Shown here: piece by piece, positions 1 to 49,882 of the stretch
Numbering within the stretch: the stretch's first letter is position 1
Layout of the letters: each line of letters opens with the position of its first letter
Virus record (IMG/VR): IMGVR_UViG_3300018481_000009
Location: 1-49,882 of that record
Direction: 5' to 3' (one strand)
From: a virus
Length of the DNA stretch: 49,882 nt
Program-made: the position numbers and the translations under genes
Notes under the pieces: model-generated
The model's input: only the letters and a program-made list of their open reading frames with translations
What the model was told of the DNA's origin: nothing
The model's database searches: none

Positions 1-123
1 GAGATTCGCCAGGCCGGCCATGAAATCACGTACGACTGGACAGTGGATGTCCTCAAGTTCGGGGCCGGTGACCCCAAGGAAGTGCCAGAAGACGTCATGA
101 GGAAGGCCGCAGAGAACGACAGA
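1..123. repeat. terminal direct repeat, identical to 49760-49882 (circular or terminally redundant genome, unit length 49759 bp)
   Basis: both ends compared base by base; an ORF runs across the junction. Confidence 0.9.
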
Positions 124-369
124 CGAGGCGTACGGGAGTGCCACCTCTTCATCCTCCTGTGGTCCCCGATGGCATACGGCGCGCTCATGGAGCTGGGGAT
201 GGCCATGGAGCGGAGGAAGCGTATCTGGATCATCGGTGAGTCCGAGCCAGGTCCGGGGTCCGTTCGGTTCTCGGTGTTCTGGCTCCTGCCCGACATCCAG
301 TTCGAGATCAAGTACGGGTGGGAAGCCATCCAGGAGTTGGAACACGGGGATGCCTTCCACGCCATCTAA
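1..369 (+). CDS. 3' part of wrap-around gene: nucleoside 2-deoxyribosyltransferase-like protein
   Basis: frame 1 is open from base 1; a GALMELGMAMERRKRIW motif resembles the catalytic Glu region of NDT/DNPH1-like proteins. Confidence 0.6.
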   Translation, partial: EIRQAGHEITYDWTVDVLKFGAGDPKEVPEDVMRKAAENDRRGVRECHLFILLWSPMAYGALMELGMAMERRKRIWIIGESEPGPGSVRFSVFWLLPDIQFEIKYGWEAIQELEHGDAFHAI

Positions 370-1807
370 GCTGGTCTTCAAGACCAAGCCTCGACCGTAC
401 CAGGTCCCCGCCCTCAAGAAGATGGTCAAGAACGGGGGTGGGGGTCTGTACGTCCCCATGCGGTGGGGGAAGTCGTGGATCGCTATCAACTGGGCAGCCG
501 CGATGGCCTTGAAGAACTTCCCCAACCAAATAACGCGCATCCTAATCGTGTGTCCTAACGACGTCAAGGCGGAGTGGGAGGAACAGCTCGAGTGGCACTG
601 CCCACTGCCTTATCGTCTGCTCGCGCAGCCAACAACAGCCCTGGTGAAGAACCCCAAGCAGAAGACCGAGCTGCACTTCCACATCCGGAACTACGAGGCC
701 ATGTACGCTCGGGAGCGGGACCTGCTAGACTTCGAGGCCAGCGAGACCAACCGATCCTGGACCGCGGTGACAGATAAGGCACTCCTGGTCTGGCAACCAC
801 ACCTGATGGTCGTGGATGAAGTCCACCACATAGGCAAGCCTACCACTAAACAGTCGGCTAAGGTCTGCCAAGTGGCTCGTACTTCCCACCACAGGTTGAT
901 GTTGACAGGAGCGCCCTTCCACCGCAAACCGTTCTTCATCTTTGGTCAGTTCAAATACTACGACCCGGGCATCTTCGGGGGCAACTGGGGCACGTTCAAA
1001 AGACACATCGCCGTGTTCGGTGGCTACGGTGGTTATGAAGTGAAGAAGTACCGCAACCTCGGTTGGGTCCGCAAGAAGGTTCGACCTCATGTGTGGATCT
1101 CACGCAAGGTGCCACTAGCTCCACCAGTCAGACGACGTATCCTGTTCTCATTGGAAGAGTCCAAGTACATCTACCAGGAGATGGAGAATGAGAGTGTCGT
1201 ACAACTGCGTGATACTTTTGCCGTGGCGGATATCGTCCTTACACGGCACCTTCGTCTCCAACAGATCGCGGGGGGGTGGGTCCGTACTCAAGATGGAAAG
1301 TTGGTCAGAGTTGGTCAGGAAAAGCGAAAGGCATTTGCTCGGCGGGTCGATGAGTACCGAGAGCAAGAAATTGCTCGATTCGTCGTCGGGGCACGTTTTC
1401 TCAAGGAAATGGTCGACATCTATGAAGTGGTCAAGGCCGCGGGGTACAAGCCCCTCATTGTCCATGGTGGTGTCACTCCAAAGAGGCGCAAGGAAAAGCG
1501 GAACTACTTCGCCAAGCACGAGAACACCGTTTTCATCTCGCAATTTCGGGCCAGCCGCGAGGGGATCGACCTCTCGGTAGCAGACACGATGGTGTTCTAC
1601 TCGCTGCCCGAAGATTATCTCACCTACGATCAGTTCGCCCACAGGATCGACAGGTTTGAAGATAAGCGCACGTTACTCTACGAGCACATGATAGCGAAGG
1701 GAACGCGCGATGAGGTAACGTTCGAGGCCTTGCAACGTCAACAGGACGTGGCTGCCTTCCTCATGACTCACCCAAAGTACGTAGAAGCCATCACGAGTAA
1801 TCTGTGA
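350..1807 (+). CDS. SNF2/DEAD-like helicase
   Basis: RWGKS Walker A-like motif, DEVH box and C-terminal QFAHRIDR motif VI; ATG at 350 follows GGGGA; the ORF-track start at 236 overlaps the upstream gene. Confidence 0.8.
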   Translation: MPSTPSKLVFKTKPRPYQVPALKKMVKNGGGGLYVPMRWGKSWIAINWAAAMALKNFPNQITRILIVCPNDVKAEWEEQLEWHCPLPYRLLAQPTTALVKNPKQKTELHFHIRNYEAMYARERDLLDFEASETNRSWTAVTDKALLVWQPHLMVVDEVHHIGKPTTKQSAKVCQVARTSHHRLMLTGAPFHRKPFFIFGQFKYYDPGIFGGNWGTFKRHIAVFGGYGGYEVKKYRNLGWVRKKVRPHVWISRKVPLAPPVRRRILFSLEESKYIYQEMENESVVQLRDTFAVADIVLTRHLRLQQIAGGWVRTQDGKLVRVGQEKRKAFARRVDEYREQEIARFVVGARFLKEMVDIYEVVKAAGYKPLIVHGGVTPKRRKEKRNYFAKHENTVFISQFRASREGIDLSVADTMVFYSLPEDYLTYDQFAHRIDRFEDKRTLLYEHMIAKGTRDEVTFEALQRQQDVAAFLMTHPKYVEAITSNL

Positions 1808-1855
1808 TATACTGTAATAGAGCCGAATTGTCCCTGCAACAGGAGGTTTGTGAGA

Positions 1856-2407
1856 GTGATTATTGTCGAGGGGCCAGACGGAGCGGGCAAGACAACCCTG
1901 GTCCAAAAGCTGGTGGAGGAGCACCCGGAGCTGGAAGTCGGAGTACGCGGCACGGACAACCGGGACTACCTGTGGAAGGTCACCGTCCCAGACACCATGA
2001 AGGCGCTCGCGGACTTCGCCATGTCACGGAGCAAGGTCAAAATCTGGGACCGGCTGTTCTACTCCGAGCTGGTCTACGCACCGCTGGGGATGCCGCCCAG
2101 GGAAATCGAGTTCAACGATCACCAGTCAGAACACATCCAGGGGATCATCAACGCGGCCGACTTCCCGGTCATCCTCTGCATGCCGCCTTGGACAGCGGTG
2201 GAAGAGAACATCATGAAGGAACACCAGATGTCCGGCGTCAAGGAGAACGCCAAGGCCATCTACGACCTGTACCGAGCACTCTTCGAGGACGGAATCCTTC
2301 CCGAGCGGACGGTGCTGTACGACTACACCCGAGGGATGGACGAGTACGAGGACATCGCAGGCGAGGTCGAGGACTACATCATCCACAAGAAGGCACGGTC
2401 ATGGTGA
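1856..2407 (+). CDS. thymidylate (dNMP) kinase-like P-loop kinase
   Basis: IIVEGPDGAGKTTL P-loop and a DRLFYSELVYAP motif as in Tmk; GTG 1856 lies 9 nt after AGGAGG, whereas GTG 1850 is too close to it. Confidence 0.7.
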   Translation: MIIVEGPDGAGKTTLVQKLVEEHPELEVGVRGTDNRDYLWKVTVPDTMKALADFAMSRSKVKIWDRLFYSELVYAPLGMPPREIEFNDHQSEHIQGIINAADFPVILCMPPWTAVEENIMKEHQMSGVKENAKAIYDLYRALFEDGILPERTVLYDYTRGMDEYEDIAGEVEDYIIHKKARSW

Positions 2408-2946: not shown

Positions 2947-3773
2947 TCCGCGAAGCGGACACCCTCACGGAACTCTGGCACTCAGCTTGCGACGGCCTGC
3001 TGTTCTGTAAGGCCGAGGACCTGGGGTACCAGTCAGGAGCTACCACCGGCGTGTTCGACTGCATGCTGTCCACCCCGTCCATGGAGTTCGACTTCGACGT
3101 GGGAGCCGACCTCTGGCTCACGAAGCACAGGTTCGCCAAGCTGCAGAAGGACTACCTCGACCACGACCTCACTCGAGCCTTTGTCCACAAGGCAGCTTCC
3201 ATGACGCAGAACCTCGCCAAGAGGGGAACCGTCACCCAGATGAACACCCGGGTACACGGGGTCCAGGTCAACCAAGGCGGACGAAAGAAGGACAACTACA
3301 AGTGGGGGAACTGCATATTTGGTTATTCCTTCCGCCCAGCGCTCAAGGAACGGGCGGTGTTCTCCATGCATTCGAGGACGAGCTACATCTCGTATATGGG
3401 CGGCATGGATTTGGCCCTGGCCTACACCTTAGCGAAATCTATCGCCCAGCTGAGGGGCGACGACGTGAGGGAGTACGGCTTTCGATGGATGGCGGACTCA
3501 CTCCAGTGGTATTCGATCAAGTCCATGGCATACATACACACCTACGACCTCGTGGACGAGATCCTCGACACAAAAAAGTGGCCGGATAAGAAGTACCCGA
3601 CCGTCAAGATCACGAGGAACAGCTACGACTTCCTCCACAGGAGGTTGGAGGCCGACAACCCACCGAAGTACGGACCAACGCTAAGGATGTGGAGCTTGAT
3701 GTTCGAGACGGGCAACACCCGACGACCGGTGTCCCTCCCTGTGGATGACCTCCGGTTGGCGGTGGAACTGTGA
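2943..3773 (+). CDS. divergent thymidylate-synthase-fold protein (paralog 1)
   Basis: GNCIFGYSF...SRTSY...MGGMDLALAY aligns by eye to ThyA PCHAFFQF...RSCD...PFNIASY; GTGA overlap with the MazG stop. Confidence 0.45.
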   Translation: MIREADTLTELWHSACDGLLFCKAEDLGYQSGATTGVFDCMLSTPSMEFDFDVGADLWLTKHRFAKLQKDYLDHDLTRAFVHKAASMTQNLAKRGTVTQMNTRVHGVQVNQGGRKKDNYKWGNCIFGYSFRPALKERAVFSMHSRTSYISYMGGMDLALAYTLAKSIAQLRGDDVREYGFRWMADSLQWYSIKSMAYIHTYDLVDEILDTKKWPDKKYPTVKITRNSYDFLHRRLEADNPPKYGPTLRMWSLMFETGNTRRPVSLPVDDLRLAVEL

Positions 3774-4594
3774 TTTCCTTCAGCACCAACGACTACGCTG
3801 GCTTCGCGGATATGTACGCGAACATGGCCAGCTACTTCCTCAACCCGGCGTATTACCAGGAGGTGGACACGGGACACTGGCAGGCTCTCAAGGGCACACC
3901 TCACTCTCACACCCGGGAGATGCGCCACGTTCACCTCCAGAGTCCCATCTTTCCCACGATCGGGTCCTTGGCGTCCTGGTTCCAGCCGAATCTCCCGTGG
4001 GCAGAGGACCACTTCCTCGAGCGAGTGGGATACGAGCCACTCAACCCGGGAGAGCAGTACAAGAACTGGCCATGGTACAGAGGCGGGGTCGAGGATCACA
4101 AAGAGACGGGCCAGTTCTCGCACACCTACATGGAACGCTTCTGGCCTCGAACAGCGGGGGAGCCTGGGTCGTTCCCTATTCAGGGCCACAGGGGAATCCG
4201 GTACCGCTACGGTGATCTCAAAGACGTGCTCGATCTGCTGGCGCGGGAACCAATGACACGACAAGCCTACCTGCCCATCTGGTTCCCCGAGGACACGGGA
4301 GCCCACCACGAACAACGAGTTCCGTGCACGCTGGGCTACCACTTCATGGTCAGGAACGACCGGATGCACTGCTTCTACCCGATGCGCTCGGTGGATTTCG
4401 TCAGGTACCTCAAGGACGACCTGTACATGGCGGCCAGACTCGTCCTCCACGTCATCGGGATGCTGCAGAACCGGAACAACGGCTATTGGGATGTGGTGGC
4501 TCCGGGAACGCTCGAGTTCTTCGCCAGCTCGTTGCACATCTTCGACGGGGACGTCAAGAAGTTGAGGAGTGAATATGGCGACAAGACCTTCTAG
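3770..4594 (+). CDS. thymidylate synthase / dNMP hydroxymethylase-family protein (paralog 2)
   Basis: RQAYLPIWFPED, VPCTLGYHF (catalytic Cys), MRSVDF (RSxD) and SSLHIF motifs are colinear with ThyA; GTGA overlap. Confidence 0.65.
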   Translation: MISFSTNDYAGFADMYANMASYFLNPAYYQEVDTGHWQALKGTPHSHTREMRHVHLQSPIFPTIGSLASWFQPNLPWAEDHFLERVGYEPLNPGEQYKNWPWYRGGVEDHKETGQFSHTYMERFWPRTAGEPGSFPIQGHRGIRYRYGDLKDVLDLLAREPMTRQAYLPIWFPEDTGAHHEQRVPCTLGYHFMVRNDRMHCFYPMRSVDFVRYLKDDLYMAARLVLHVIGMLQNRNNGYWDVVAPGTLEFFASSLHIFDGDVKKLRSEYGDKTF

Positions 4595-5045
4595 AGACCA
4601 AACATTCATGGAGGTGGCACGTGTCTTCGCAAGACGATCGACTTGTAGGAGAGGCCAGGTGGGCGCTGTCCTGGTCCGAGATCGAAGAATCATCGCGACG
4701 GGCTACAACGGTGCTCCATCAGGGGCTCGGAATTGCCTCGAACTGGGTTGCCTGGTGCCTGAGGACAATCCGGACCTTGGATGCCAACGATCCATCCACG
4801 CTGAGGCTAACGTTATCGCTTACACGGCGAGGAGCCAAGGCGGAGCTGAGGGCACGACTCTATACAGTACCGCCAGTCCCTGCCTCAAGTGCGCCCAGCT
4901 CATCGCAGCGGCCGGCATCGAGAAAGTCATCTACGAAAACCCGTACCGGATCGCAGACGGACTAGAGCTGCTGGACTCTCTGTTCATTCCGTGTATCCAG
5001 TTCGCCTGGACCCCGATGGAGTCGGATAAGAACGACCGTGCCTGA
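4575..5045 (+). CDS. dCMP deaminase
   Basis: HAE...PCLKCA zinc motifs and ATGYNGAP; ATG 4575 lies 5 nt after GAGGAG. Confidence 0.85.
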   Translation: MATRPSRDQTFMEVARVFARRSTCRRGQVGAVLVRDRRIIATGYNGAPSGARNCLELGCLVPEDNPDLGCQRSIHAEANVIAYTARSQGGAEGTTLYSTASPCLKCAQLIAAAGIEKVIYENPYRIADGLELLDSLFIPCIQFAWTPMESDKNDRA

Positions 5046-7473
5046 CTTCCGGGATAAGATTCGCAACCCCGACTGCACGTTGTGTCCTCTCAACGAGTCG
5101 GCAGAACACGTGTGTCTGATGGGTAGCGGACCCCGGAAGGCGCGGGTCATGGTGATAGGGGAGGCGCCCGGGGCCAGGGAGGACGATTCTCATAAGGCGT
5201 TTGTGGGACGTTCTGGCAAGCTCCTGGACTCCGTGTTGTCGCAGGTAGGACTTCCCCGGGATGAGGTCTACGTGACCAACGTGGCTAAATGCCGGCCTCC
5301 AGAGAACCGGACTCCCAAACGCGGTGAAATCAAGACCTGTGTGGAGGAGTACCTCATCCCCGAGTTCGAGGCCGTCAAGCCCGAGTTCGTGCTCCTCCTC
5401 GGCAATGCTCCACTGATCGGAGTCATCGGCAAGAGTGGCATCACCAAACACAACGGGACGGTCTGGAAAGTCGAGGTGGCTGATGGGCATTGGGCCAGGG
5501 TCTTTGCAACGGTTCACCCTGCAGCTGTACTTCGCAACCCGCGCTTTACGCAGGTTTTCGCAGCTGATATCACGCGTTTCGGAAACCTGGTCAACAATCG
5601 GGACGTCACCCCCAAGACCGACGTGCGACTCGTTACGAAAAAGCGGCATATGCTATGGCTATATGACCAACTCATGGAAGCCACCGAGATTAGCTGGGAC
5701 GTTGAAACGGATACCGAACAGAAGCCGGGGTTTGTACGGACCGCAGGTCAGGATTGGCACGGTGATGAATCATGGATCTGTTCCATCGCCTTCTCATGGG
5801 ATGAAGGTGCATCCGCCGCGGTACCGCTCATGCACCCCGAAACTCCGTGGGCCAACCCGAAGGCGGTCCTAGAAGCACTCAGAAGGCCACTGACCCGAGG
5901 ACGAGAGGTCAAGTACATCGCGCACAACGGGAAGTTCGACGCGAAGTGGCTCCACTCCAAAGGCATCCCAATCCGTCAAGACTTCGACACAATGCTCGCG
6001 GCTCACATGGTCGATGAGAACCAGTTCAAGGGGCTCAAGCCGCTGAGCAAGGTCGAGCTAGGAGCAGCTGCTTACGGAGTGGGTGAGGACATCAAGCATC
6101 CCTCCAAGGCTCCGATACGCAAGCTCTGTATCTACAACGGCAAGGACACCGACTACACGCTCCGATTGTATCACGTGTTCCGCGAGCATTTGAAGCAGGA
6201 CCCGCGCAGCGCGATGGTATTCCTCAAGCTCATGATGCCAGCCTCTAATGCCCTTGTGGATATCGAGCGCACCGGGGTCTGGGTGGACCCAGAACGGTGG
6301 GAAGAACGGTACATCCAAGCACAGGAGAATCGCGACAAGGTCCACGACTACATCGATCAGTTCTGGACCGAGGACGCCAAGATCAATCTGAACAGTCCTC
6401 CACAGGTTGGGAGGCTCTTGTTCCGCGATCTGGAGCTACCGATTCTCATGAAGACCAAGACCGGGGCGGCTAGTACGGCTGAAGCGGTCCTCCTGAGGCT
6501 CGAGGATCAGCATAAGGTGGCCAGAGCCATCATGATCTACAGAAAGTGGGCGAAGTATGTCAACACGTATCTTGGTCCTTGGAAGTACGAATGGATGGAT
6601 AGTCGAGGCAGAATCCACTCCCAGTACAAGCTCTTTGGAACGGTTACTGGACGGCTATCTGGTGAGGGAGGAATTCAGCAGGTGCCTCGAGATCCTTTCA
6701 TCCGATCCGTTATTGGAGCGCCTCCTGGATGGAGCTTCGTTCAAGGTGACTTTTCACAGGTCGAGCTACGGGTCGCATTCTGGCAAGCCGACGAGAGGAA
6801 CGGACTCCGGCACTACATGAAGGGTGAGGACGTGCACATGATCCGTGCACTCCGTATGACAGGCAAGGTCGACCCGAAGAAGGTCACCAAGGAAGAACGC
6901 AAGCGGGCTAAGCCAGTCTCATTCGGTTACGTCTACGGGATGGGAGCGGCCAAGTTCGTCAGCTACGCCTTCGACAACTACGGGCTCAAAGTCACGGAGG
7001 ATGAGGCGCAACGTGATCGTAATCAATTCTTCAGTGATTACCCGGCTCTTCGTCCATGGCACGATCGTCAGCGTAAACTTGCCCGCCGATATGGACGGGT
7101 TGTATCGCCTATTGGTCGTGTACGACACCTACCTGATATCACGTCTGATGATGAGAAGGTACGTCAGGAGGCGGAGCGCCAGGCGATCAACTCGCCAATC
7201 CAATCTTTCGCCTCTGACGCCATGCTCATCGCTCTCATCCGACTGCAACGAATGCTTCCCCCTTCAGAAGCCAAGATCGTGGCAACTGTACACGACGCCA
7301 TCCTCTTCGAGGTCAGGGACGACAAGCTCGACAAGTGGCTTCCCGTGATCAAGGAAGTGATGGAAGATATGGACTACATCAAGCGACTGTTCGGAACGGA
7401 GGTCGGAGTGCCTATCGTAGCAGACATCGAGGTAGGGCGACATTGGGGTGAGGGCAAGCCATGGGCGGCGTGA
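5038..7473 (+). CDS. family-4 uracil-DNA glycosylase domain fused to a family A DNA polymerase (3'-5' exo + pol)
   Basis: N-terminal CTLC, GEAPG..E, FVGRSG and HPAAVLRN (UDG4 motifs); then DVETD (ExoI), DFSQVELRV (motif A), RKRAKPVSFGYVYG (motif B) and VHDAILFE (motif C). Confidence 0.85.
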   Translation: MPDFRDKIRNPDCTLCPLNESAEHVCLMGSGPRKARVMVIGEAPGAREDDSHKAFVGRSGKLLDSVLSQVGLPRDEVYVTNVAKCRPPENRTPKRGEIKTCVEEYLIPEFEAVKPEFVLLLGNAPLIGVIGKSGITKHNGTVWKVEVADGHWARVFATVHPAAVLRNPRFTQVFAADITRFGNLVNNRDVTPKTDVRLVTKKRHMLWLYDQLMEATEISWDVETDTEQKPGFVRTAGQDWHGDESWICSIAFSWDEGASAAVPLMHPETPWANPKAVLEALRRPLTRGREVKYIAHNGKFDAKWLHSKGIPIRQDFDTMLAAHMVDENQFKGLKPLSKVELGAAAYGVGEDIKHPSKAPIRKLCIYNGKDTDYTLRLYHVFREHLKQDPRSAMVFLKLMMPASNALVDIERTGVWVDPERWEERYIQAQENRDKVHDYIDQFWTEDAKINLNSPPQVGRLLFRDLELPILMKTKTGAASTAEAVLLRLEDQHKVARAIMIYRKWAKYVNTYLGPWKYEWMDSRGRIHSQYKLFGTVTGRLSGEGGIQQVPRDPFIRSVIGAPPGWSFVQGDFSQVELRVAFWQADERNGLRHYMKGEDVHMIRALRMTGKVDPKKVTKEERKRAKPVSFGYVYGMGAAKFVSYAFDNYGLKVTEDEAQRDRNQFFSDYPALRPWHDRQRKLARRYGRVVSPIGRVRHLPDITSDDEKVRQEAERQAINSPIQSFASDAMLIALIRLQRMLPPSEAKIVATVHDAILFEVRDDKLDKWLPVIKEVMEDMDYIKRLFGTEVGVPIVADIEVGRHWGEGKPWAA

Positions 7474-7688
7474 AGATCAACCGAGCCAAGCGGAAGCTGG
7501 TCCACGAGTTATGGCGAGCCTGCCTCCTGAACCCTGTGGTCCTGGCTCGGAGCGAGCTGGACTGGATCATGCGGGCACACAAGGAGGGCTTCACTCCGGG
7601 TGAGTTGCAGTTCCTGGAGGAACGCCATGACGAGCTGGTAAAGATGCATGAGGACCTGATCAAGGTCTACTACAGGCTCAAGAAATGA
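7461..7688 (+). CDS. hypothetical protein
   Basis: ORF overlaps the polymerase stop; GGTGAGGG lies upstream. Confidence 0.6.
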   Translation: MGGVKINRAKRKLVHELWRACLLNPVVLARSELDWIMRAHKEGFTPGELQFLEERHDELVKMHEDLIKVYYRLKK

Positions 7689-40677: not shown

Positions 40678-40702
40678 GCCCAGCTTGACGGGAGGCTTTT
40701 CA

Positions 40703-41050: not shown

Positions 41051-41066
41051 TTTTTGGTCACCGCAC

Positions 41067-41079
41067 TTGCGAATCGCAA
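41067..41079. promoter_or_regulatory. inverted repeat TTGCGA-A-TCGCAA (candidate operator)
   Basis: perfect 6-1-6 palindrome 17 nt upstream of the HTH gene start. Confidence 0.4.
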
Positions 41080-41081
41080 AC

Positions 41082-41102
41082 AAGGCCCCTTTAGGGGGCC
41101 TT
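41082..41102 (-). terminator. intrinsic terminator-like hairpin AAGGCCCC-TTTAG-GGGGCCTT
   Basis: 8-bp stem; followed by TTTG on the minus strand; 28 nt after the primase-helicase stop. Confidence 0.6.
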
Positions 41103-41129
41103 TGGCGATCGACACTCTTTCATGCAAAA

Positions 41130-43142
41130 CTACTGTGACGATTTGACGATGAACAGTTTGTGTGAGCCGTTGGTGCGGGTATCTTTGACTGCGTATCCTG
41201 CCTTCTCCGCACGGCGTCTGGCGGCCCTGATACTGATGTCCAGCGCGTCTGCCACGGTGCGTATTGCCACTCGGCCGTCGTTGTCCTCCACCAGGTCCTC
41301 CAGCGTGTTGTACTCCTCCGCGGCCTTGGCCCTGGGACTGCCAACCTGTACGGTGTACGCTGGGTCGTCGTCAGTGCCAAGGTCGAACTGGACGTCCAGG
41401 CGGCCTCTGGAGGCATGTCCCCTGTGGAGGGGCACCATGTGCACGAACGATTCGGCCTCATTCGGTCGGTCCAGTAGCAACGCGGACTCGTACCACCTGC
41501 CGAAAACTCCCGTGCCGCTGATCCTCTCGGTCATGCTCTTGACAGGGTTCTCGGCGTTGGCCTTTTTGAAGTGGTGAATGATGAGAGTACCACAGCCATA
41601 CCGTTGTTTGATCTTCAACAGCCGTTGTAACACCGGCGTCATCTGGTGGGCGGAGTTCTCGTCGACTCCCTCGGCCATCAAGTACAACGGGTCGAGGATG
41701 AGCAGCTGAGGGTTGATCCTGCGAATCTGCTTGCGCAGCCACCGGACATCGGACTCCTCCGTCAAGTCAAAGTCGATCAGCCCGGACGGCATGAACAGCG
41801 GGTACTCCGACCCCTTGATCTTGAGTGCTCGCGCGCCGTTGGTCGTGTACGACTCCCCCAACCCTCGCGACTGCTCGATCCTCTCGATCATGTCCTGCAC
41901 GTCCCCGAGCTGGTTCTCCTTCTGAATCATGATCACGGGCCCTTGCTTCGGCACCGGAAACTGATTGAGGAAGTTGCTACCCGACGCGACCGAGATAGCC
42001 ATGTCGAGTGCGACCAGACTCTTGAAACTCTTGGGTGGCCCAGCGATTACCCCGTGAGCGTGTCCACTCCAGATTCCCTCAACCGTCCACCTTGTCCTCG
42101 GAATCTTCTTGCGTCGGAACTCGTCGACTCTGACCAGTTGCCTCCTGGTCCCTTCGCTTCGCTTCCTCGCGGATGCGGTTGATCCGTTCTGCTTGGAGGT
42201 GCTCTTTCCGTTCTTGCGGGGTGCCTCCTTTCGCGAGTTCTTCGATGAGTTCGTTGATACTGTGTCGGCCGCCTTGTTTACTTCGGACCATAGTTGTTGG
42301 TCCTCTCGTTGTTGGCCCCTGTACTTGTTGCACGGTGCTGCTTTCACCATGACAAATGACTGTGCGGGTGGCACCCCTACCTCCGCCAGTAACATCTCCA
42401 ACTTGTACAACGCCTCACTACGGCTTCCCACCGGTACTGCTTCCTTCAGCAACCGCTTTGCCTCGATCGTGAGCTTAGGTCCCCAGCGCTTCCGCAGCCT
42501 CTGGGGCGTGCTCTTGCTGACCTTGAAGTCCGCCAGCTCACCTGCTACTTGGATACCCACAGGTGTAGATTTCACCGCGTCGTATATCGCGGCAGCCTCG
42601 TACACGGTCTTGGGTGAGTACCACAAGAGGTTCACCTTCCTGTGGTCCCCACGCTTGTTGTTGAAGCTGCCGGGTACCCTCAGTACCTTGGTGCAACTCC
42701 AACCGCCCTTGTCAGCCCCAATGTGGTACGTGAGAAGCTGGTTCACCCGCTCGAACTGATCTGGGCGTAGCGGTCTCTCTAAGAGCCACATGGCCTGAAA
42801 CCGACCTTCCGAGGTCTCCCAGGCTATTGTCGGCCTCAGGTGGGCCGCTATGCTATCCGGTACGACCTCATCTAGATCAGCGTAGAGCCACTTGCCCGGG
42901 AGAGCGAATTGTTTCTGCCGCCGCGGCTCCGAGAAGAGCGTCGGGGCGAAGTAGAGGTCATCGAGCGTCGGAAGCTTCTTGAGGTCCAACGCTGGGATGT
43001 CCTGCCAACTGCCTGTGGTCCAATCCTTGGCAGCGAGGATGGCGTGGTAGTCGCCTGTACCTCGATACTGCAACTTCCACATGGCAGTAACAAACTTGGA
43101 TGCGAAATCTAAGGGCACATCATCAGCTCCAGTCGAGAACAA
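41130..43142 (-). CDS. bifunctional primase-polymerase / RepA-DnaB-like helicase
   Basis: N-terminal YADLDEV and TIAWETSEGRFQAMW (prim-pol-like); central GPPKSFKS Walker A and LLILDPL Walker B; TTG start uncertain. Confidence 0.75.
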   Translation of the reverse strand: MFSTGADDVPLDFASKFVTAMWKLQYRGTGDYHAILAAKDWTTGSWQDIPALDLKKLPTLDDLYFAPTLFSEPRRQKQFALPGKWLYADLDEVVPDSIAAHLRPTIAWETSEGRFQAMWLLERPLRPDQFERVNQLLTYHIGADKGGWSCTKVLRVPGSFNNKRGDHRKVNLLWYSPKTVYEAAAIYDAVKSTPVGIQVAGELADFKVSKSTPQRLRKRWGPKLTIEAKRLLKEAVPVGSRSEALYKLEMLLAEVGVPPAQSFVMVKAAPCNKYRGQQREDQQLWSEVNKAADTVSTNSSKNSRKEAPRKNGKSTSKQNGSTASARKRSEGTRRQLVRVDEFRRKKIPRTRWTVEGIWSGHAHGVIAGPPKSFKSLVALDMAISVASGSNFLNQFPVPKQGPVIMIQKENQLGDVQDMIERIEQSRGLGESYTTNGARALKIKGSEYPLFMPSGLIDFDLTEESDVRWLRKQIRRINPQLLILDPLYLMAEGVDENSAHQMTPVLQRLLKIKQRYGCGTLIIHHFKKANAENPVKSMTERISGTGVFGRWYESALLLDRPNEAESFVHMVPLHRGHASRGRLDVQFDLGTDDDPAYTVQVGSPRAKAAEEYNTLEDLVEDNDGRVAIRTVADALDISIRAARRRAEKAGYAVKDTRTNGSHKLFIVKSSQ

Positions 43143-44047: not shown

Positions 44048-44366
44048 TCAGATCGACTGGCGGCTTCCTACCGCTCTCCGAGTCCTTGGCGTGTGCTCGT
44101 AGGAGGTCCATGACCTTCTCAGTGATGAGCGGCCTGATGTCCTCCGGTACGTGGTCTCGGAAGATTCCGAGCGGGATGCCCTTGATGTACCCATCGAAGC
44201 GGAGGACTTCCTCCCAGTTCTCGTTGACCTCCCAGGCGGGCTTCCCCGTCTGTGGGTCGGTCTCCTGGTTGAACTCCTGCCAGAAGGCTCCTCCACAGGG
44301 GTGGTCCCAACCTACGACCACTCGCTCGGTGCCCTCTGGCCAGCGGGTGAGGATGATCCTGCTCAT
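44040..44366 (-). CDS. hypothetical protein
   Basis: ATG 44366 forms an ATGA overlap with the upstream stop. Confidence 0.55.
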   Translation of the reverse strand: MSRIILTRWPEGTERVVVGWDHPCGGAFWQEFNQETDPQTGKPAWEVNENWEEVLRFDGYIKGIPLGIFRDHVPEDIRPLITEKVMDLLRAHAKDSESGRKPPVDLSE

Positions 44367-44666: not shown

Positions 44667-44846
44667 CTACTGTGACGGGTACTGCGGCTTGCCCGCCCAC
44701 TGTTCTGCGGCGGCTAGGAGTGCGTCCTGTGGAGTCTGGCCGAGCCCGGATGCGAGTGTCCCTGCCTGTGTGGATACCACCTCCGCCTGATAGCGGCCCA
44801 TGCTAGCGGGCTTGAAGATGACACCGAGATTGGTGACGTCCATCAT
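44667..44846 (-). CDS. 59-aa hypothetical protein
   Basis: AAGGAGGA RBS; ATGA overlap; just below the ORF-track cutoff. Confidence 0.6.
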   Translation of the reverse strand: MMDVTNLGVIFKPASMGRYQAEVVSTQAGTLASGLGQTPQDALLAAAEQWAGKPQYPSQ

Positions 44847-45061
44847 TCCTCCTTGTTCATGGCGTACAGGTAAACGGCGGTGACGACCAGGATGAGTTCC
44901 TTGTCGTTGTAGCTGACCTTCATGCCCTTGGCCTCCACAGGGTTGGCCTGGGTGCCTTCCACGAATTGGAGGAACGGCAGGAACTCGGGGGCACGTTCCT
45001 CGATCGCGGTCTGTACTTCATCCATTGCACTTGCCATCGTCTTGACTACCTTTCGTCGCAT
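44843..45061 (-). CDS. hypothetical protein
   Basis: ATG 45061 is preceded by GAAGGAA; the longer start has no RBS. Confidence 0.55.
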   Translation of the reverse strand: MRRKVVKTMASAMDEVQTAIEERAPEFLPFLQFVEGTQANPVEAKGMKVSYNDKELILVVTAVYLYAMNKEE

Positions 45062-45144: not shown

Positions 45145-46110
45145 TTACTCGTCGCCGTACTCCTTGGCGATCAGCTTGGCGAGCTTCTTGAACTGGGGCG
45201 AGCCGGTGGACTTCCAGTAGTACCGGCCGTGCTCCTCGTTCTTCTCGACCTCGTTCTTGCGGAGGTAGACCCGGACGTCCCGTCCGTCGATGTCCATGTC
45301 CGCGATCTCGGAAGCTGCCTCGGCGAGTTCGGCGGTGCCGACCCCTCCGGTGAGTTCCTTCGTGGAGCGGCCGGCGGCGGAGGCGCCCTTCTTCGTGCCC
45401 TTGCCGTTGCTCTTGGCCGACTTCACCGAGGACTTCGAGCGGGTCCGACGCTTCTTGGGCGCGGGCTCCTCCTCTTCGTCCTCATCGTCCTCGTCCTCCT
45501 CCTCGTCGTCCTCCTCCTCGACGACCGCCTTCTTGCGGGTGCGCTTCCTGGTCGTCGTCTTGGCGGCCGACTTCTTGCGTCGGCGAGGCTTCTCCTCGAC
45601 CTCGTCTTCGTCCTCCTCGACGTCCGGCTCCTCTTCGTCAAGCTCCTCGAGGCCTTCCAGCTCGTCGATCTCGTCCTCGGGCTCCTTGACGGCTGCCTTC
45701 TTGCGTGCCATAAAGTCAGCACTCTCCTTGCTGTTCATTGGTAGTTTGTAGACTCGTTGGAGGGTGAACTTCTTCCTCCCGCGTCCAGCGACGCGTAGTG
45801 TCTTCTTCTTTGGCGGTTTGAGTGTGGTTTGGGTAAAAACCTCCGTCGTGCCGTTCAGGTAGATGGCGAACCACTTGTATCTTATCACCTGTGGAGAGCT
45901 GCTCGCCCCTAGCCTCCTCATCACCCTCAACTCGTTGTGCGTAAGGGGGACGGTGATATGTTGGTGAACTCCTCTAAGTTGCCAGGCCTTGAACACCTTG
46001 TCGTGCAGACCTCTGAGGAGCGGGCCCTCGTGTCGGCGAAGTCTCTCCAGTGTGTGGTGAGCTTCGTACTTGTCGAGAGTGACCGACGCGGCTAATCTTC
46101 CATATGGCAT
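45145..46110 (-). CDS. highly charged protein with alternating acidic/basic tracts and a C-terminal paralog-C domain
   Basis: first gene of the leftward block; the C-terminus resembles the domain at 35413 and 39162. Confidence 0.65.
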   Translation of the reverse strand: MPYGRLAASVTLDKYEAHHTLERLRRHEGPLLRGLHDKVFKAWQLRGVHQHITVPLTHNELRVMRRLGASSSPQVIRYKWFAIYLNGTTEVFTQTTLKPPKKKTLRVAGRGRKKFTLQRVYKLPMNSKESADFMARKKAAVKEPEDEIDELEGLEELDEEEPDVEEDEDEVEEKPRRRKKSAAKTTTRKRTRKKAVVEEEDDEEEDEDDEDEEEEPAPKKRRTRSKSSVKSAKSNGKGTKKGASAAGRSTKELTGGVGTAELAEAASEIADMDIDGRDVRVYLRKNEVEKNEEHGRYYWKSTGSPQFKKLAKLIAKEYGDE

Positions 46111-46726: not shown

Positions 46727-47346
46727 TGGGGACTGCCAACGCGGCAGAGCGGGCAAGGTGGGAGGTCTTGTGGATCAAGGATCGAAAGATCCACCGCAAG
46801 GACTGTGGCACCGACTTGACTGAGGGCATCCGCCTCTACATGATGCTGAAAGGCAAGAGGTCGGGAGTCACGCTCCGCTGCAAGAACTTCGGGAGTCCGC
46901 CCCCGCTGAAGCTCCAGTCTCGAGTCATCCACTACAAGGTGCTGGAGAGGCTGGACAAGCCGAAGATCGTCAGGCGCAAGGGGAAGCGCTATCGGAAGAC
47001 GCACGAGGTCGTCATCAAACGTGGCCTCTACGTCCCGATGAAGAAGAAGAACAGGGACGGCATCTGGTGGTGTCCATACTGCCGGGAGTTACGGCGGTTC
47101 GTGAAGAAGAAGTACATCGAGGTGGAACTCACACCAGGAGGACGGACCACCCAAATCCACGAGCCCGGCATGTACTGCCCTATGTGCGGCGTTAGCCACA
47201 GGGACCACTCGGTCAGGAAGTGGAATCCGATCGCCGTCAAGGTGTTCTACGAGATGGAAGCCACCCGCGAACGAGCCCCAGCTCGGACGGCCCAGTCCCG
47301 ACGGACTGCCAGGCGGCGGCGGAAGAGGCGAGAGAATGGCCGGTGA
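46723..47346 (+). CDS. zinc-ribbon protein with Arg-rich tail
   Basis: CPYC...CPMC; ATGA coupling. Confidence 0.6.
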   Translation: MMGTANAAERARWEVLWIKDRKIHRKDCGTDLTEGIRLYMMLKGKRSGVTLRCKNFGSPPPLKLQSRVIHYKVLERLDKPKIVRRKGKRYRKTHEVVIKRGLYVPMKKKNRDGIWWCPYCRELRRFVKKKYIEVELTPGGRTTQIHEPGMYCPMCGVSHRDHSVRKWNPIAVKVFYEMEATRERAPARTAQSRRTARRRRKRRENGR

Positions 47347-47443
47347 CTACTGTCGAAAGTGCAAGCGAATCCTCCTGTGGGTATCAGGCAACAAAGTCTG
47401 TGTCATCAAGACCTGCACCGAGTACGGGAAGGTGGTGAAATGA
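47336..47443 (+). CDS. 35-aa zinc-ribbon peptide (MAGDYCRKCKRILLWVSGNKVCVIKTCTEYGKVVK)
   Basis: CxxC...CxxxxC; its TGA overlaps the next ATG. Confidence 0.45.
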   Translation: MAGDYCRKCKRILLWVSGNKVCVIKTCTEYGKVVK

Positions 47444-48122: not shown

Positions 48123-48535
48123 CCGTCATCCTAGCAATGCTGGCGCTGGCAACAGCCCCGGAGGAGTACAAGCCGCACTACCGCTTCTGCAACACCAGGG
48201 CCTGCGACCAGCGGGTCCACGCCATCCGCAACCGCAGGAAGGTCCAGGCGAGACACAAGGCCCAGGTCAGAGCCGAGAGGCACGACGCCAAGAGGCGCAA
48301 GGTCGTCAGGCCGTACCGAGCCTGGTTGGCATCCACCAGACGCTGCGAATCCGGCGGCCGCTACCACATAGCCACAGGTAACGGGTTCTACGGCGCCTAC
48401 CAGTTCACCGTGAGCAGCTGGTACGCAGCAGGAGGACGGGGGATGCCACACCTCAACCCGCCGTTGGAGCAGGACTACAGGGCCGTCCGACTCCTACACA
48501 TCCAAGGCCGCGGAGCCTGGCCCAACTGTGGGTAA
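48119..48535 (+). CDS. resuscitation-promoting-factor (Rpf)-like transglycosylase with N-terminal hydrophobic anchor
   Basis: CESGGRYHIATGNGFYGAYQFTVSSWYAAGGRGMPH...EQ...GRGAWPNCG closely matches the remembered Rpf domain. Confidence 0.8.
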   Translation: MTVILAMLALATAPEEYKPHYRFCNTRACDQRVHAIRNRRKVQARHKAQVRAERHDAKRRKVVRPYRAWLASTRRCESGGRYHIATGNGFYGAYQFTVSSWYAAGGRGMPHLNPPLEQDYRAVRLLHIQGRGAWPNCG

Positions 48536-48550
48536 TCTACCGGGAGAACA

Positions 48551-49156
48551 ATGAGCGACGCCCAAGACAGTCTCCACGCCAGCAGGATCACTGACCACCC
48601 CTTCATGCCACCGAGCAGAGAGGAGTGGTATCGACCGTGCAAGGTCTGCAGGATGGCAGAGGCAGCCCACAGGGAGTCCACCTTGTACGACCCAGCCCGA
48701 CAGGTCAAAACGCTCTTGCACATGACCTACCTGGACCAGCACTTGGAGAAACGCGACTTCGCCCTAGGAGGCTCAGCCGTGCTCGCCCTACGGGGCATGC
48801 GGCCTATCCGGGACCTCGACATATACGTCACTCCGTTCTTCTACAGGCACGTCTTCAAGTCGGACAAGGGGTGGGTGGAGTGGGACCCCGACCCTAACGA
48901 CCCCATTGGCCACTCGAAGATGCCACAGCTCGTGAAGGTAGTCAACCACATCACCTGCACGATGGCAAGGGAGTGGAAGCACGGAGGCTACCCCAAGCGC
49001 ATCGACGTACAGGACTCCATCGGGGACCCGGAGTTCGTACAGGGCATCCCGTGCATCCCATTGCACATCGTCTACGAGTGGAAGAAGTCTGTCGGCCGAC
49101 CAAAGGACATCCAAGACGTGGAAATGATCGACAAGTGGAGGGAGACGCATGGCTAG
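48551..49156 (+). CDS. nucleotidyltransferase-fold protein
   Basis: GGSAVLALRGMRPIRDLDIYV (GS...DxD) and C-terminal GRPKDIQDVEMI. Confidence 0.55.
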   Translation: MSDAQDSLHASRITDHPFMPPSREEWYRPCKVCRMAEAAHRESTLYDPARQVKTLLHMTYLDQHLEKRDFALGGSAVLALRGMRPIRDLDIYVTPFFYRHVFKSDKGWVEWDPDPNDPIGHSKMPQLVKVVNHITCTMAREWKHGGYPKRIDVQDSIGDPEFVQGIPCIPLHIVYEWKKSVGRPKDIQDVEMIDKWRETHG

Positions 49157-49703
49157 GTTCGTTTCGATAGACATCGAGACCGGGGGATTAGACCCACAGA
49201 GGCATCCGATCACTGAGGTGGGGATGGTGATCGAGGACATGAACCACGGTATCAGTAAGGTCGAGTTCTCGTTGCCATTCGACCCCGCGGACTGTGACCC
49301 CGTGGCCCTCGAGGTTCAGGGGTGGGGCAAGCGCGACCTACCCAAGCGGTGGGAACCACCGAGAGCGGCCGGCTTCATCCACGAGTCCACGAGGGACGCT
49401 CACATCGTTGGGAAGAACCCGTGGTTCGACGCCAGCTTCCTCGAGGTGTTCCTGAAGATGTACGACCTCACCCCGCCATGGCACCACCGCCTAGTGGATG
49501 TGGGGTCGCTGGCCTGGGGGTGGTACAACGGAGTCGAGGACTGCATGACATCAACAATCACGGGGAGTCACCAAGTGGACCCGCCGAACTCGGTCAGAGT
49601 CGGGGAGCTGGTAGGCATCTTCATGAACCCCGACGCGAGGCACGCAGCCATGTACGACGCGGAGTGGGCCTACGACGTCTTCAGCAAGATCGTGCCCCGA
49701 TGA
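49149..49703 (+). CDS. DEDDh (DnaQ-like) 3'-5' exonuclease
   Basis: SIDIETGG (ExoI), NPWFDASFL (ExoII), HAAMYDAE (ExoIII). Confidence 0.8.
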   Translation: MARFVSIDIETGGLDPQRHPITEVGMVIEDMNHGISKVEFSLPFDPADCDPVALEVQGWGKRDLPKRWEPPRAAGFIHESTRDAHIVGKNPWFDASFLEVFLKMYDLTPPWHHRLVDVGSLAWGWYNGVEDCMTSTITGSHQVDPPNSVRVGELVGIFMNPDARHAAMYDAEWAYDVFSKIVPR

Positions 49704-49882
49704 AGGTCTACGTCGCAGCCTCCAGCCAGCACGCCACCCAGGCCGCCCGGTTCATGCGAGAGATTCGCCAGGCCGGCCATGAAATCACGTACGACTGGAC
49801 AGTGGATGTCCTCAAGTTCGGGGCCGGTGACCCCAAGGAAGTGCCAGAAGACGTCATGAGGAAGGCCGCAGAGAACGACAGA
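49700..49882 (+). CDS. 5' part of wrap-around gene: nucleoside 2-deoxyribosyltransferase-like protein (continues at 124-369)
   Basis: ATGA overlap with the stop of the upstream exonuclease gene; MKVYVAASSQ N-terminus typical of the NDT/Rcl fold. Confidence 0.65.
   Translation, partial: MKVYVAASSQHATQAARFMREIRQAGHEITYDWTVDVLKFGAGDPKEVPEDVMRKAAENDR
49760..49882. repeat. second copy of the 123-bp terminal repeat
   Basis: identical to 1-123. Confidence 0.9.

Follow-up and report, generated by a model that had tools for sequence, protein, structure and literature searches.

Characterised primases usually read words of 3-5 nt. RepB′ of RSF1010 uses two 40-nt hairpin sites rather than a short repeated word. 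It initiates with dATP placed opposite T32 within a GTG of the template (PMC8567376). The pRN1 AEP primase has a strict requirement for GTG in the template, immediately 5′ of which it starts (PMC2965215).

We analyzed a viral DNA of 49,882 nucleotides from IMG/VR (positions 1..49882, a complete circular assembly; here called the window). It encodes a protein related to RepB′, together with a polymerase that might act after it:

41130..43142, minus strand: primase-helicase gene, 670 aa, the proposed reader of the motif (Pfam matches)
42243..43142, minus strand: RepB′-like AEP primase domain plus a probable helix-bundle region, about aa 1-300 (alignment)
41556..42140, minus strand: RepA/DnaB-like (AAA_25) helicase domain, aa 335-529
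5038..7473, plus strand: DNA polymerase I with an N-terminal family-4 UDG-like domain, the proposed primer extender

The primase-helicase matches Pfam RepB_primase PF16793 (E 4e-9) and AAA_25 (E 8e-32). RSF1010 RepB′ is the best PDB match to a profile of its N-terminal domain (3h20/3h25, E 6e-5), and the helicase part resembles RSF1010 RepA (1g8y). Residues D89, D91, S111, D144, and R155 are invariant in primase-domain alignment A2, and the DxD and R positions of the window protein align with RepB′ D77/D78 and R145. The window is also rich in a word, CCACAGG, that is longer (6-7 nt) than the words usual for characterised primases. We think that these copies probably serve as lagging-strand priming sites for the phage's own RepB′-type primase-helicase (41130-43142).

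Enrichment of the CCACAGG word

An exact search found 56 copies of CCACAGG, split 38:18 between the top and bottom strands, the same numbers that the original prediction had obtained by eye. All but two of its coordinates were correct; 6410 should be 6400, and 12352 should be 12342. The copies are as follows (exact search; on the minus strand the top strand reads CCTGTGG):

889..895, 1639..1645, 3635..3641, 4186..4192, 6400..6406, 9093..9099, 12342..12348, 13321..13327, 13971..13977, 15128..15134, plus strand: CCACAGG
17271..17277, 17628..17634, 19136..19142, 21219..21225, 22124..22130, 26209..26215, 26608..26614, 28101..28107, 29070..29076, 30405..30411, plus strand: CCACAGG
30913..30919, 32584..32590, 33979..33985, 36037..36043, 37218..37224, 37925..37931, 38417..38423, 38845..38851, 38926..38932, 39469..39475, plus strand: CCACAGG
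39579..39585, 40582..40588, 42557..42563, 44293..44299, 44935..44941, 47196..47202, 48372..48378, 48667..48673, plus strand: CCACAGG
156..162, 1969..1975, 3738..3744, 7533..7539, 10012..10018, 14040..14046, 18423..18429, 20729..20735, 21357..21363, minus strand: CCACAGG
25066..25072, 28210..28216, 32731..32737, 41421..41427, 42639..42645, 43012..43018, 44726..44732, 45888..45894, 47374..47380, minus strand: CCACAGG

No 7-mer of the window deviates further from expectation than CCACAGG (z ~15). The earlier estimate of about 5 chance copies per strand agrees with base composition (4.8 per strand) and with an order-2 Markov model (5.2 / 4.5), and dinucleotide shuffles gave 9.2 ± 3.0 copies over both strands, with a maximum of 18. 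As had been noticed, neighbouring variants are rarer (CCACAGA 12+12, CCACAGC 5+3, and CCACAGT 5+3 on the two strands). The base 3′ of top-strand copies is never C (A15 G17 T6), and C follows once among all 56 copies.

The earlier choice of the 7-mer as the unit captured the top outlier, but the unit under selection is really the hexamer CCACAG rather than the heptamer. CCACAG/CTGTGG occurs 96 times (60 top + 36 bottom) versus 30 expected. Position 7 prefers G over A, and T is preferred immediately 5′ of the motif. Beyond the 56 heptamers there are 40 further hexamer copies, 22 top and 18 bottom (start positions):

2847, 7692, 10377, 10548, 11156, 16281, 23563, 24733, 24862, 25087, 26600, plus strand: CCACAG without G at position 7
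27297, 34509, 34575, 36534, 37023, 37434, 37557, 40341, 41590, 48923, 49194, plus strand: CCACAG without G at position 7
2808, 8964, 10596, 12845, 15948, 16263, 18480, 22552, 24178, minus strand: CTGTGG, bottom-strand CCACAG without G at position 7
26499, 26737, 30589, 35128, 43400, 44250, 46632, 46803, 48526, minus strand: CTGTGG, bottom-strand CCACAG without G at position 7

Base composition, codon usage, or amino-acid content could give rise to such an excess incidentally. Synonymous-codon shuffles gave 21.7 ± 3.2 copies, more than the 15.6 ± 3.0 from codon-order shuffles, so protein sequence contributes a little (both totals include 8 intergenic copies, which shuffling does not move). The 56 observed copies nonetheless exceed all 500 synonymous shuffles, whose maximum was 34. 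Copies are found in every frame, on either strand, and in intergenic DNA, at positions that are not conserved. The codon readings that had been pointed out are also present, with 12 copies read CAC-AGG and 18 read CCT-GTG-G, the latter using the rarest Pro codon (CCT, 17%). The placement of copies without regard to frame, strand, or gene boundary, together with survival of the excess under synonymous shuffling, supports the claim that the word is selected as a DNA word and not via protein. Unrelated phages of similar composition did not show the excess, and nothing similar appeared in 60 control contigs. The finding withstood both refutation tests set out in the original prediction, the codon-preserving shuffles and the comparison with unrelated phages. 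The codon shuffles and the control contigs refute a compositional by-product, to which we give virtually no chance.

Site turnover is fast: 10 of 30 sites were kept in relatives at ~76% identity, with a background of 22%. Individual positions are replaced quickly between relatives, and density is maintained.

Occurrence of the word in other phages

We ranked [C/G]CACAN words among all 2080 hexamers in individual phage genomes. The best such hexamer ranks 1-2 in the window, L071m, MW202455, Triscuit, Shrew, Peep, Almagne, P21, Jojan60, and Ichor. This panel (n=10) consists of phages of Actinobacteria, Pseudomonas (Almagne), Stenotrophomonas (Jojan60), and Clostridium (P21) that carry a RepB′-like (AEP) primase domain. 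The best rank is 4 in Pons and 16 in Cleo. In Jojan60 and Ichor the primase domain sits on a different helicase (DUF3987), and the word is still GCACAG / GCACAC. No [C/G]CACAN signal was found in Araxxi, which has the same host strain as Triscuit and Peep, or in Bridgette and Gadjet, which have other primase types. The signal thus follows the phage rather than the host. The word was not enriched in Pan2, which has a distant RepB-like domain, or in L070, a partial contig of a relative (PolA 58% identity). In some CCACAC-type actinophages CCACAG is depleted 4-7-fold, an observation for which the priming reading does not account.

These distributions bear on the suggestion that the word is a Chi-like signal. 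Such a signal would attenuate a helicase-nuclease (host RecBCD, AddAB, or AdnAB, or a phage nuclease) and thereby shield phage DNA in linear or rolling-circle form. Several traits of the word would suit this role: it is oriented, over-represented, short, and rich in G and T, its strand excess is conserved relative to genome layout, and a protective signal would also be compatible with even spacing. Nevertheless, the CCACA core is enriched in phages whose hosts span three phyla with differing helicase-nucleases (Actinobacteria, Proteobacteria, and Firmicutes), which fits poorly with a host-dependent meaning. Within one host strain, two phages have different extended words (tCCACACC versus GGCCACAC) and a third has none, and the Arthrobacter phage Bridgette lacks the word. 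The orientations are also interspersed genome-wide rather than arranged by DNA ends. We regard a Chi-like role as decidedly unlikely.

The tCCACA core is identical to the last two-thirds (3′ side) of the DnaA box consensus. Sites that recruit or titrate host DnaA (TCCACA being part of TTATCCACA / TTGTCCACA) would have a conserved host reader, which would explain one core across phyla, and the window mildly favours T at -1, A at -2, and T at -4. In most genomes, however, enrichment does not extend to the 5′ TTA/TTG portion of the box, whereas specification is strong and lineage-dependent at positions 6-7, outside it. Jojan60 and Ichor use GCACA, and phages without the signal exist on the same hosts as phages with it. 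DnaA boxes therefore receive very little credence from us.

A nucleotide-metabolism module (dCMP deaminase, a divergent ThyA-like enzyme, and a dNMP kinase) is present in the window and in many positive phages. Together with the two T residues on the G-rich strand of the word, it raises the idea of a sequence-specific DNA modification tied to unusual thymidine metabolism. Against this idea, Peep is enriched for the word, yet homologues of the ThyA-like enzyme and the deaminase were not detected in it; in Zuko the module is present but the hexamer signal is not; and the metabolism genes differ in Jojan60 and Ichor. No DNA methyltransferase was found among the scanned window proteins, and neither the enrichment nor the even spacing on each strand is readily explained by modification. 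We hold this reading to be very improbable. The earlier proposal of a modification site or of binding by an mIHF- or HTH-type protein gained no support, and the feature tracks the RepB′-type primase domain instead.

Association with the primase domain

We surveyed 80 IMG/VR contigs fetched with a primase-domain profile and 60 control contigs. A [C/G]CACAN word was the single top hexamer in 38/80 primase contigs and among the top three in 45/80; it was in the top ten in 0/60 control contigs (Fisher P = 6e-15). Position 6 of the word (…G, …C, …T) varies in line with the primase-domain tree: even below 50% identity, nearest neighbours share the variant in 40/57 cases, with 23 expected by chance. 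All variants have 5′-TGTG-3′ on the G-rich strand, and this core contains GTG, matching the start triplet of RepB′ and the pRN1 primase. This association is correlative, and general relatedness among the phages confounds it in part. Pan2, L070, and Zuko are exceptions to it.

Another protein co-inherited with the primase might instead bind or process the word, with a role in DNA compaction, recombination, or replisome loading. Candidates are a helicase loader, an SSB-like protein, the Sak4 or Cas4 recombination proteins, and a small unannotated DNA-binding protein. The correlative primase association leaves room for such a reader, and Sak4-like ATPase and Cas4-type exonuclease genes travel with the primase in most positive genomes. 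Zuko, in which a RepB_primase domain is not detectable, still has some excess of CCACACC (76 vs 25 expected). However, Zuko, which is without the hexamer signal, carries all of the SNF2, kinase, PolA, Cas4, Sak4, ThyA-like, and deaminase genes; in a small tblastn panel, the primase-helicase was the only module gene missing from it. Several of these genes are missing from Peep, Jojan60, or Ichor, all of which have the signal. The primase class, moreover, is documented to recognise short GTG-containing single-stranded words (PMC8567376, PMC2965215). We consider a different co-inherited reader unlikely.

Spacing and polarity of the sites

Sites on each strand lie ~0.8-1.4 kb apart, more evenly than chance. 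For top-strand CCACAG in the window, the CV of spacing is 0.67 versus 0.98 for random placement (P=0.001), and the largest gap is 2261 versus 3900. Across 28 genomes, 50/56 strand sets fall under the random CV (Stouffer Z -9.7), and the median gap of ~1.07 kb is on the scale of Okazaki fragments.

The original prediction held that the 38:18 bias follows the DNA strand and not transcription. The top strand is indeed favoured in plus-coded (13:4) and minus-coded genes (19:12), but the bias is modest (binomial P = 0.010) and peaks in a single run. Coding constraints account for part of it. Two features describe this polarity:

33979..40588, plus strand: top-strand CCACAG run, with 15/16 hexamer copies on the top strand and 9/9 heptamers in 36037-40588
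40589..41421, no strand: site-polarity switch, the peak of the cumulative top-minus-bottom count

The run, whose nine top-only copies (36037-40582) had been remarked on before, adjoins the 3′ end of the primase-helicase gene on its downstream side. In the 2 kb past the primase gene in 46 related contigs, the G-rich word lies on the primase-coding strand 88:43, and in the window the count past the gene is 13:0. In 11/11 genomes oriented so that their structural genes point forward, the forward strand carries more of the G-rich word. The polarity switch offers a weak lead to a possible replication origin; a search for iterons and an AT-rich tract at 40589..41421 found none.

The close pairs that had been described are real, with 7 convergent and 0 divergent CCACAGG pairs within 200 bp (P ~0.002 in a post hoc test), but neither hexamers nor other genomes reproduced the excess. 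The priming reading does not account for these seven pairs.

A model for lagging-strand priming

Of the three meanings first offered, replication polarity, proposed there as a packaging or replication polarity signal, comes closest to the priming reading that we favour. In this model, the AEP primase would be carried by its fused RepA-like helicase 5′→3′ along the lagging-strand template and would recognise the word in single-stranded DNA. The template would be the strand reading 5′-(Y)CCTGTGG(A)-3′, with the invariant core TGTG. The primer would begin with A opposite T at or beside GTG, giving roughly 5′-ACAGG... or 5′-AGG..., and phage PolA would then extend it. The length of the word and its repetition, which differ from the site usage of characterised primases and of RepB′, count against this model. 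A recognition word of 6-7 nt would occur by chance only ~1 time per 3 kb per strand; selection would therefore have raised site density, to 1 per 0.8-1.4 kb per strand, evenly and via synonymous, even rare, codons. The one-strand excess would reflect forks running mostly in the direction of the structural genes, and the one-sided run beside the primase gene may mark a replication start.

Across many hosts, related words mark most of the phages with this primase; the specificity of the enzyme may therefore be readable from genome sequence alone.

CCACAGG is over-represented as a DNA word

An exact search for the heptamer CCACAGG and its complement CCTGTGG returned 38 top-strand and 18 bottom-strand copies, the counts that the original prediction had reached by eye. 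The coordinates it gave were also correct, except for two that were off by ten (true positions 6400 and 12342). Base composition predicts about 4.8 copies per strand and an order-2 Markov model predicts 5.2 / 4.5. Dinucleotide shuffles gave 9.2 ± 3.0 copies over both strands, with a maximum of 18. According to the prediction, the excess would lose its meaning if codon-preserving shuffles yielded similar counts. We shuffled synonymous codons within each of the 72 called genes, preserving all proteins and per-gene codon usage, and obtained 21.7 ± 3.2 copies (maximum 34 in 500 shuffles) against the 56 observed; the shuffled total takes in eight intergenic copies that the procedure cannot move. 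Shuffling codon order gave 15.6 copies. Because the shuffles fall far below the observed count, the excess is genuine and concerns the DNA word itself, and an artefact of codon use or composition is excluded as its source.

CCACAGG is the strongest 7-mer outlier in the window (z about 15), and the word is enriched 3-6 fold. Copies are found in three frames per coding orientation and in intergenic DNA. They draw on infrequent codons such as AGG and on CCT, the rarest proline codon, 18 of whose 143 uses lie inside the motif. The core hexamer CCACAG occurs 60 times on the top strand and 36 times on the bottom strand, compared with 30 expected, and this hexamer is the unit selected. Position 7 favors G over A, the base after it is usually a purine, and T is favored immediately 5' of the motif. 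The flanks of the 56 heptamer copies carry almost no information outside positions -2/-1 and +1. Biased repair or depletion of one-step neighbors was considered as a source of the excess and rejected, as the neighbors of the hexamer show no consistent depletion.

The strand bias is modest for both the heptamer (38:18, P = 0.010) and the hexamer (60:36, P = 0.018). The top strand is in excess whichever way the genes are coded (13:4 for plus-coded, 19:12 for minus-coded). The bias peaks between 33979 and 40582, a run with 15 of its 16 hexamer copies on the top strand. Seven convergent CCACAGG…CCTGTGG pairs lie 69-178 bp apart, and no divergent pair falls within 200 bp (P about 0.002, post hoc). 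This pattern was absent when tested with hexamers or in related genomes.

Convergent heptamer pairs in the window (forward/reverse positions)
3635/3738
13971/14040
21219/21357
28101/28210
32584/32731
42557/42639
47196/47374

Genome context of the motif

The same 123 bases form an exact direct repeat at the two ends of the window (1-123 and 49760-49882), which is therefore a complete circular assembly with 49,759 bp of unique sequence. No motif copies lie inside the repeat. We found no close relative among deposited GenBank phages; the sole match was a 199-nt patch of the capsid gene with 82% identity to Arthrobacter phages. The capsid resemblance to phage Bridgette is the only clue to the host, and it points to Arthrobacter or another member of the Micrococcales. 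The gene layout is like that of Gordonia phage Cleo and its kin. Structural genes occupy the minus strand from 11.4 to 35 kb, and a block for replication and nucleotide metabolism is on the opposite strand. This block encodes an SNF2 helicase, a dNMP kinase, a divergent ThyA-like enzyme, a dCMP deaminase, PolA, a Cas4-type exonuclease, and Sak4.

Features of the window
1850-7473, plus strand: nucleotide-metabolism block (dNMP kinase, phrog_13667, ThyA-like enzyme, dCMP deaminase, PolA)
2751-3773: unknown protein phrog_13667
3770-4594: ThyA-like enzyme, scoring far below ThyA cut-offs
4569-5045: dCMP deaminase
Within 1850-7473: PolA with an N-terminal family-4 UDG-like domain
11359-12156, minus strand: collagen-like Gly-X-Y repeat gene (Pfam Collagen), matching phage tail-fibre families
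29464-30408, minus strand: major capsid gene, 55% protein identity to Arthrobacter phage Bridgette, containing the 199-nt stretch with 82% identity
41130-43142, minus strand: primase-helicase, 670 aa

The metabolism block is suggestive of a non-canonical thymidine, for example 5-hydroxymethyl-dU or one of its derivatives, and the same block is present in Cleo, Pons, Triscuit, Shrew, Zuko, Almagne, and the phage record MW202455. We rejected this thymidine-modification module as the determinant of the word: Peep lacks it and is still enriched, and Zuko carries it but shows no hexamer signal. The palindromes GGATCC, GAGCTC, and TTCGAA are nearly missing from the window (7-mers containing them occur 0-2 times, with 12-18 expected). 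Their loss is typical restriction avoidance; in Cleo, many more words are depleted. CCACAGG itself is not a plausible restriction or modification target. It is enriched rather than avoided, and we found no methyltransferase among the scanned proteins, which covered small ORFs only in part.

Related words occur in phages of different hosts

Metagenomic contigs with PolA 68-99% identical to that of the window were all enriched for CCACAG (2.5-6.9 fold). One such lineage, with a GC content of only 52%, had TCCACAG as its top 7-mer. Sixty contigs with distant PolA genes showed no enrichment. MW202455 is a myovirus whose structural genes are unrelated to those of the window and whose PolA is only 41% identical. 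Its top 7-mer is CCTGTGG and its top hexamer is CCACAC.

Words in cultured phages
Triscuit (Microbacterium): tCCACACC, z 17-21
Shrew (Curtobacterium): tCCACACC, z 17-21
Peep (Microbacterium): GGCCACAC
Pons (Gordonia): ACCACACC
Cleo (Gordonia): weak CCACAC
Araxxi (same host strain as Triscuit and Peep): no signal
Bridgette (Arthrobacter): no signal

The original prediction had offered a Chi-like signal as one meaning of the word. The specificity of Chi depends on the helicase-nuclease of the host, whose chromosome carries an excess of the word, as with GCTGGTGG in E. coli. The form of the window word fits this reading: it is short, G/T-rich, oriented, over-represented, and selected at the DNA level. 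Its distribution across hosts does not. Three phages of M. foliorum carry tCCACACC (Triscuit), GGCCACAC (Peep), and no such word (Araxxi), and finding two different words and an absence in one host strain argues against a host-defined signal. The core is common to phages of three phyla, with hosts among Actinobacteria, Pseudomonas, Stenotrophomonas, and Clostridium; other phages of these hosts lack it. We therefore rejected host Chi, along with mimicry of host k-mers, and consider a Chi-like signal highly improbable. A search of genome contigs with PolA for host DNA returned no match.

CCACAG is depleted 4-7 fold (observed/expected 0.15-0.24) in the CCACAC-type phages Triscuit, Shrew, Peep, and Cleo, and CCACAA and CCACAT are neutral. 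The depletion was not seen in Araxxi, which shares a host with Triscuit and Peep, nor in 25 CCACAC-type metagenomic contigs.

The word co-varies with a primase-helicase

A first comparison of gene content found no gene limited to the enriched genomes, and a wider, later one singled out the primase-helicase. In tblastn searches with the module genes, only the primase-helicase both occurred in all enriched genomes and was missing from Zuko, Araxxi, and Bridgette. Zuko has every other module gene, and Peep is enriched despite lacking the ThyA-like and deaminase genes. Full-length homologs of the primase-helicase are also encoded by Pseudomonas phage Almagne, whose top pentamer is CCACA and top hexamer CCACAC (74 vs 16 expected), and by Clostridium phage P21 (34% GC), whose top pentamer is again CCACA and in which TCCACA[T/A] words are up threefold. 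In the phages Jojan60 (Stenotrophomonas) and Ichor (Arthrobacter), a RepB-like primase domain is joined to another type of helicase (DUF3987), and the top-ranked hexamers are GCACAG and GCACAC, respectively. Araxxi, Bridgette, and Gadjet, which have Prim-Pol-type primases, showed no signal, and neither did Pan2, with a distant RepB-like domain, nor L070, a partial contig of a relative with 58% PolA identity. Some excess of CCACACC is present in Zuko, which has no recognizable domain. A plasmid search with the primase found no actinobacterial plasmids.

We fetched 80 IMG/VR viral contigs using a primase-domain profile built from ten phages, keeping up to 10 kb of flank on each side (GC 35 to 66%). 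As controls we used 60 contigs fetched earlier around distant PolA genes. In each contig, the best hexamer of the form [C/G]CACAN was ranked among all 2080 hexamers.

Rank of the best [C/G]CACAN hexamer (primase contigs; controls)
Ranked first: 38/80; 0/60
In top three: 45/80; 0/60
In top ten: 59/80; 0/60
Median rank: 2; 204

The top-three counts differ with P = 6e-15 by Fisher's test. The variant at position 6 (C, G, or T) tracks the primase-domain tree, and nearest neighbors with <50% identity share their variant in 40 of 57 cases, compared with 23 by chance. Thus, the presence of the word and its variant co-vary with the primase across genomes, with Pan2 and, in part, Zuko as exceptions. 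A different, co-inherited protein could in principle read the word, though we think this improbable.

Different outlier words mark phages with other primases: ACAATAC(C) in Gadjet (z about 16), GCCGGCA in Zuko (z 15.6), CTACACC in Bridgette (15:2), CAACTAC in Araxxi (13:4), and TCGGCAA in Pan2 (11:27). Some of these could be recognition words for other replication proteins.

Sites are evenly spaced and turn over

Gaps between top-strand sites in the window have a coefficient of variation (CV) of 0.67 vs 0.98 for random placement (P = 0.001). The largest top-strand gap is 2.3 kb vs 3.9 kb expected, and sites lie on average 0.8 kb (top strand) or 1.4 kb (bottom strand) apart. Regular spacing within a strand is a general property: the CV was below random in 50 of 56 strand sets (combined Z = -9.7), with a median gap of about 1.07 kb. 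The sites thus lie on both strands, independently of genes, at the spacing of Okazaki fragments, as expected of primase initiation sites.

Individual positions are poorly conserved. Only one site in the PolA gene is roughly common to six relatives. Relatives at about 76% nucleotide identity keep 10 of 30 sites, against a background of 22%, and every such relative adds sites of its own. Density is therefore kept while positions change, as expected of many redundant sites.

Site polarity hints at an origin near the primase-helicase gene

When genomes were oriented with structural genes forward, the G-rich, TGTG-containing word was in excess on the forward strand in 11 of 11. In the window, MW202455, Triscuit, Shrew, and Peep, forward copies outnumber reverse copies by about 1.7-1.9 to 1; Pons has 30:8. 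The excess is greater in forward-transcribed arms and falls to near 1:1 to 1.4:1 in reverse-transcribed arms, indicating a DNA-strand effect mixed with a smaller coding effect. Under a priming model, the forward strand would be the lagging template for forks moving along the direction of late transcription.

The cumulative top-minus-bottom count in the window is highest at about 40.6 kb and changes direction over 41.4-46.8 kb, beside the primase gene.

Polarity feature of the window
40589-41421: polarity switch, adjoining the 3' end of the primase-helicase gene

In the 2 kb just past the primase-helicase gene, 46 related contigs (among loci L089-L168) carry the G-rich word 88:43 in favor of the primase-coding strand. 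These data hint at a replication origin near this gene. We found no iterons or AT-rich tract near the switch. Triscuit has a direct terminal repeat of about 3.6 kb (L078 1-3600 and L076, Triscuit record 64-67.5 kb), in which genes 1-8 recur as genes 106-113. Its physical ends are therefore defined, making it a good culturable model for site polarity.

A RepB'-like primase probably initiates at the word

The primase-helicase gene lies apart from the metabolism block and fuses a RepB_primase domain (PF16793, E 4e-9) to an AAA_25 helicase. The best solved-structure match to the N-terminal domain profile is RepB', the AEP primase of plasmid RSF1010 (3h20, E 6e-5), and a DxD motif and an arginine match the positions of RepB' catalytic residues. 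The C-terminal half is like the RSF1010 helicase RepA; RepB'-type plasmid primases likewise have a RepA-like helicase, fused or as a partner. The DNA primer made by RepB' begins with dATP opposite T32 within a template GTG (PMC8567376). The pRN1 primase ORF904, which shares the homologous catalytic domain and also places A first, strictly requires GTG in the template and initiates opposite the base immediately 5' of this triplet (PMC2965215). All variants of the phage word share 5'-TGTG-3' on the G-rich strand, which is GTG with a preceding T. From the shared TGTG and the published GTG starts, CCACAGG can be read as the complement of a template 5'-CCTGTGG-3', and the motif is probably a priming site for the phage enzyme.

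We infer a mechanism in which the primase recognizes 5'-CCTGTGG-3' in single-stranded DNA while its helicase travels 5'->3' on the lagging-strand template. The first primer base would be A. A requirement for six to seven bases leaves about one chance site per 3 kb per strand; such sites being too few, selection would favor more sites that are more evenly spaced. We put forward with considerable doubt the broader idea that RepB'-type phage primases use a "priming code" of 6-8 nt, which on the non-template strand would be [C/G]CACA[N][N], that co-evolves with them and is dense and even on both strands. A still more speculative extension is that the motif propagates itself, rather than being kept by selection alone: primers of the RepB' type consist of DNA and might stay in the genome, so that the primase could write the word it prefers into near-cognate sites.

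The window differs from the plasmid systems in how sites are arranged. RSF1010 RepB' uses only two 40-nt hairpin sites (ssiA/ssiB) at one origin, in a leading-strand mode. The window has roughly 100 short linear sites, without conserved flanks or a hairpin, and their spread over both strands would serve repeated lagging-strand priming. An RSF1010-type ssi site, which would span about 40 nt and combine a hairpin with a conserved 5' hexanucleotide, was rejected, as the 56 flanks are nearly uninformative and no hairpin arrangement is repeated. The phage word is also 6-8 nt long with lineage-specific flanks, in contrast to the bare triplet of the characterized enzymes.

T7 gp4, which initiates at 5'-(G/T)(G/T)GTC-3', resembles the proposed reader in joining a primase to a hexameric helicase of 5'->3' polarity and in using a short lagging-template word, an A start, and sites scattered genome-wide. 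Unlike the window primase, it is a Toprim and zinc-finger enzyme of unrelated fold rather than an AEP, and its word is 5 nt. We know of no report that T7 sites are the top over-represented, evenly spaced word of that genome.

Other dispersed words offer partial parallels. The stoperators of Cluster A mycobacteriophages and KOPS/SRS words are also single asymmetric words with many dispersed copies, some intragenic. Stoperators are transcription-oriented repressor sites of 13-14 bp and KOPS are chromosomal translocase guides, and neither has a primase tie or two-strand kilobase spacing. The DnaA box is a 9-mer, TT(A/G)TCCACA. Despite the likeness to TTATCCACA, we rejected it for the phage word: upstream TTA/TTG is not enriched, GCACA variants exist, and bases 3' of CCACA, beyond the box, are specified.

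Implications

Primase recognition sites are already known as a kind of element. In the open literature we found no earlier description of a CCACAG, CTGTGG, TCCACACC, or GGTGTGGA motif, nor of primase-site enrichment as a genomic hallmark. What appears to be new is the length of the word, its rank as top outlier, its even spacing on two strands, its spread across phyla with a primase family, and its co-variation with the primase.

Recognition words have so far been found enzyme by enzyme through biochemistry. Here, a long word is the top genomic outlier in most sampled phages that share one primase family, across several host phyla. If our reading is correct, primase specificity would be readable from sequence alone, and the predominant fork direction, and perhaps origins, could be inferred for uncultured phages in a widespread group that spans several bacterial phyla. 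These phages would also be a natural setting in which to learn how DNA is read by an AEP primase. Skewed, Chi-like words in phage genomes would need to be interpreted with caution, as they can stem from the phage's own replisome. Finally, the sites would provide a rule for engineering or recoding such phages, because synonymous recoding that removes them could cripple replication.
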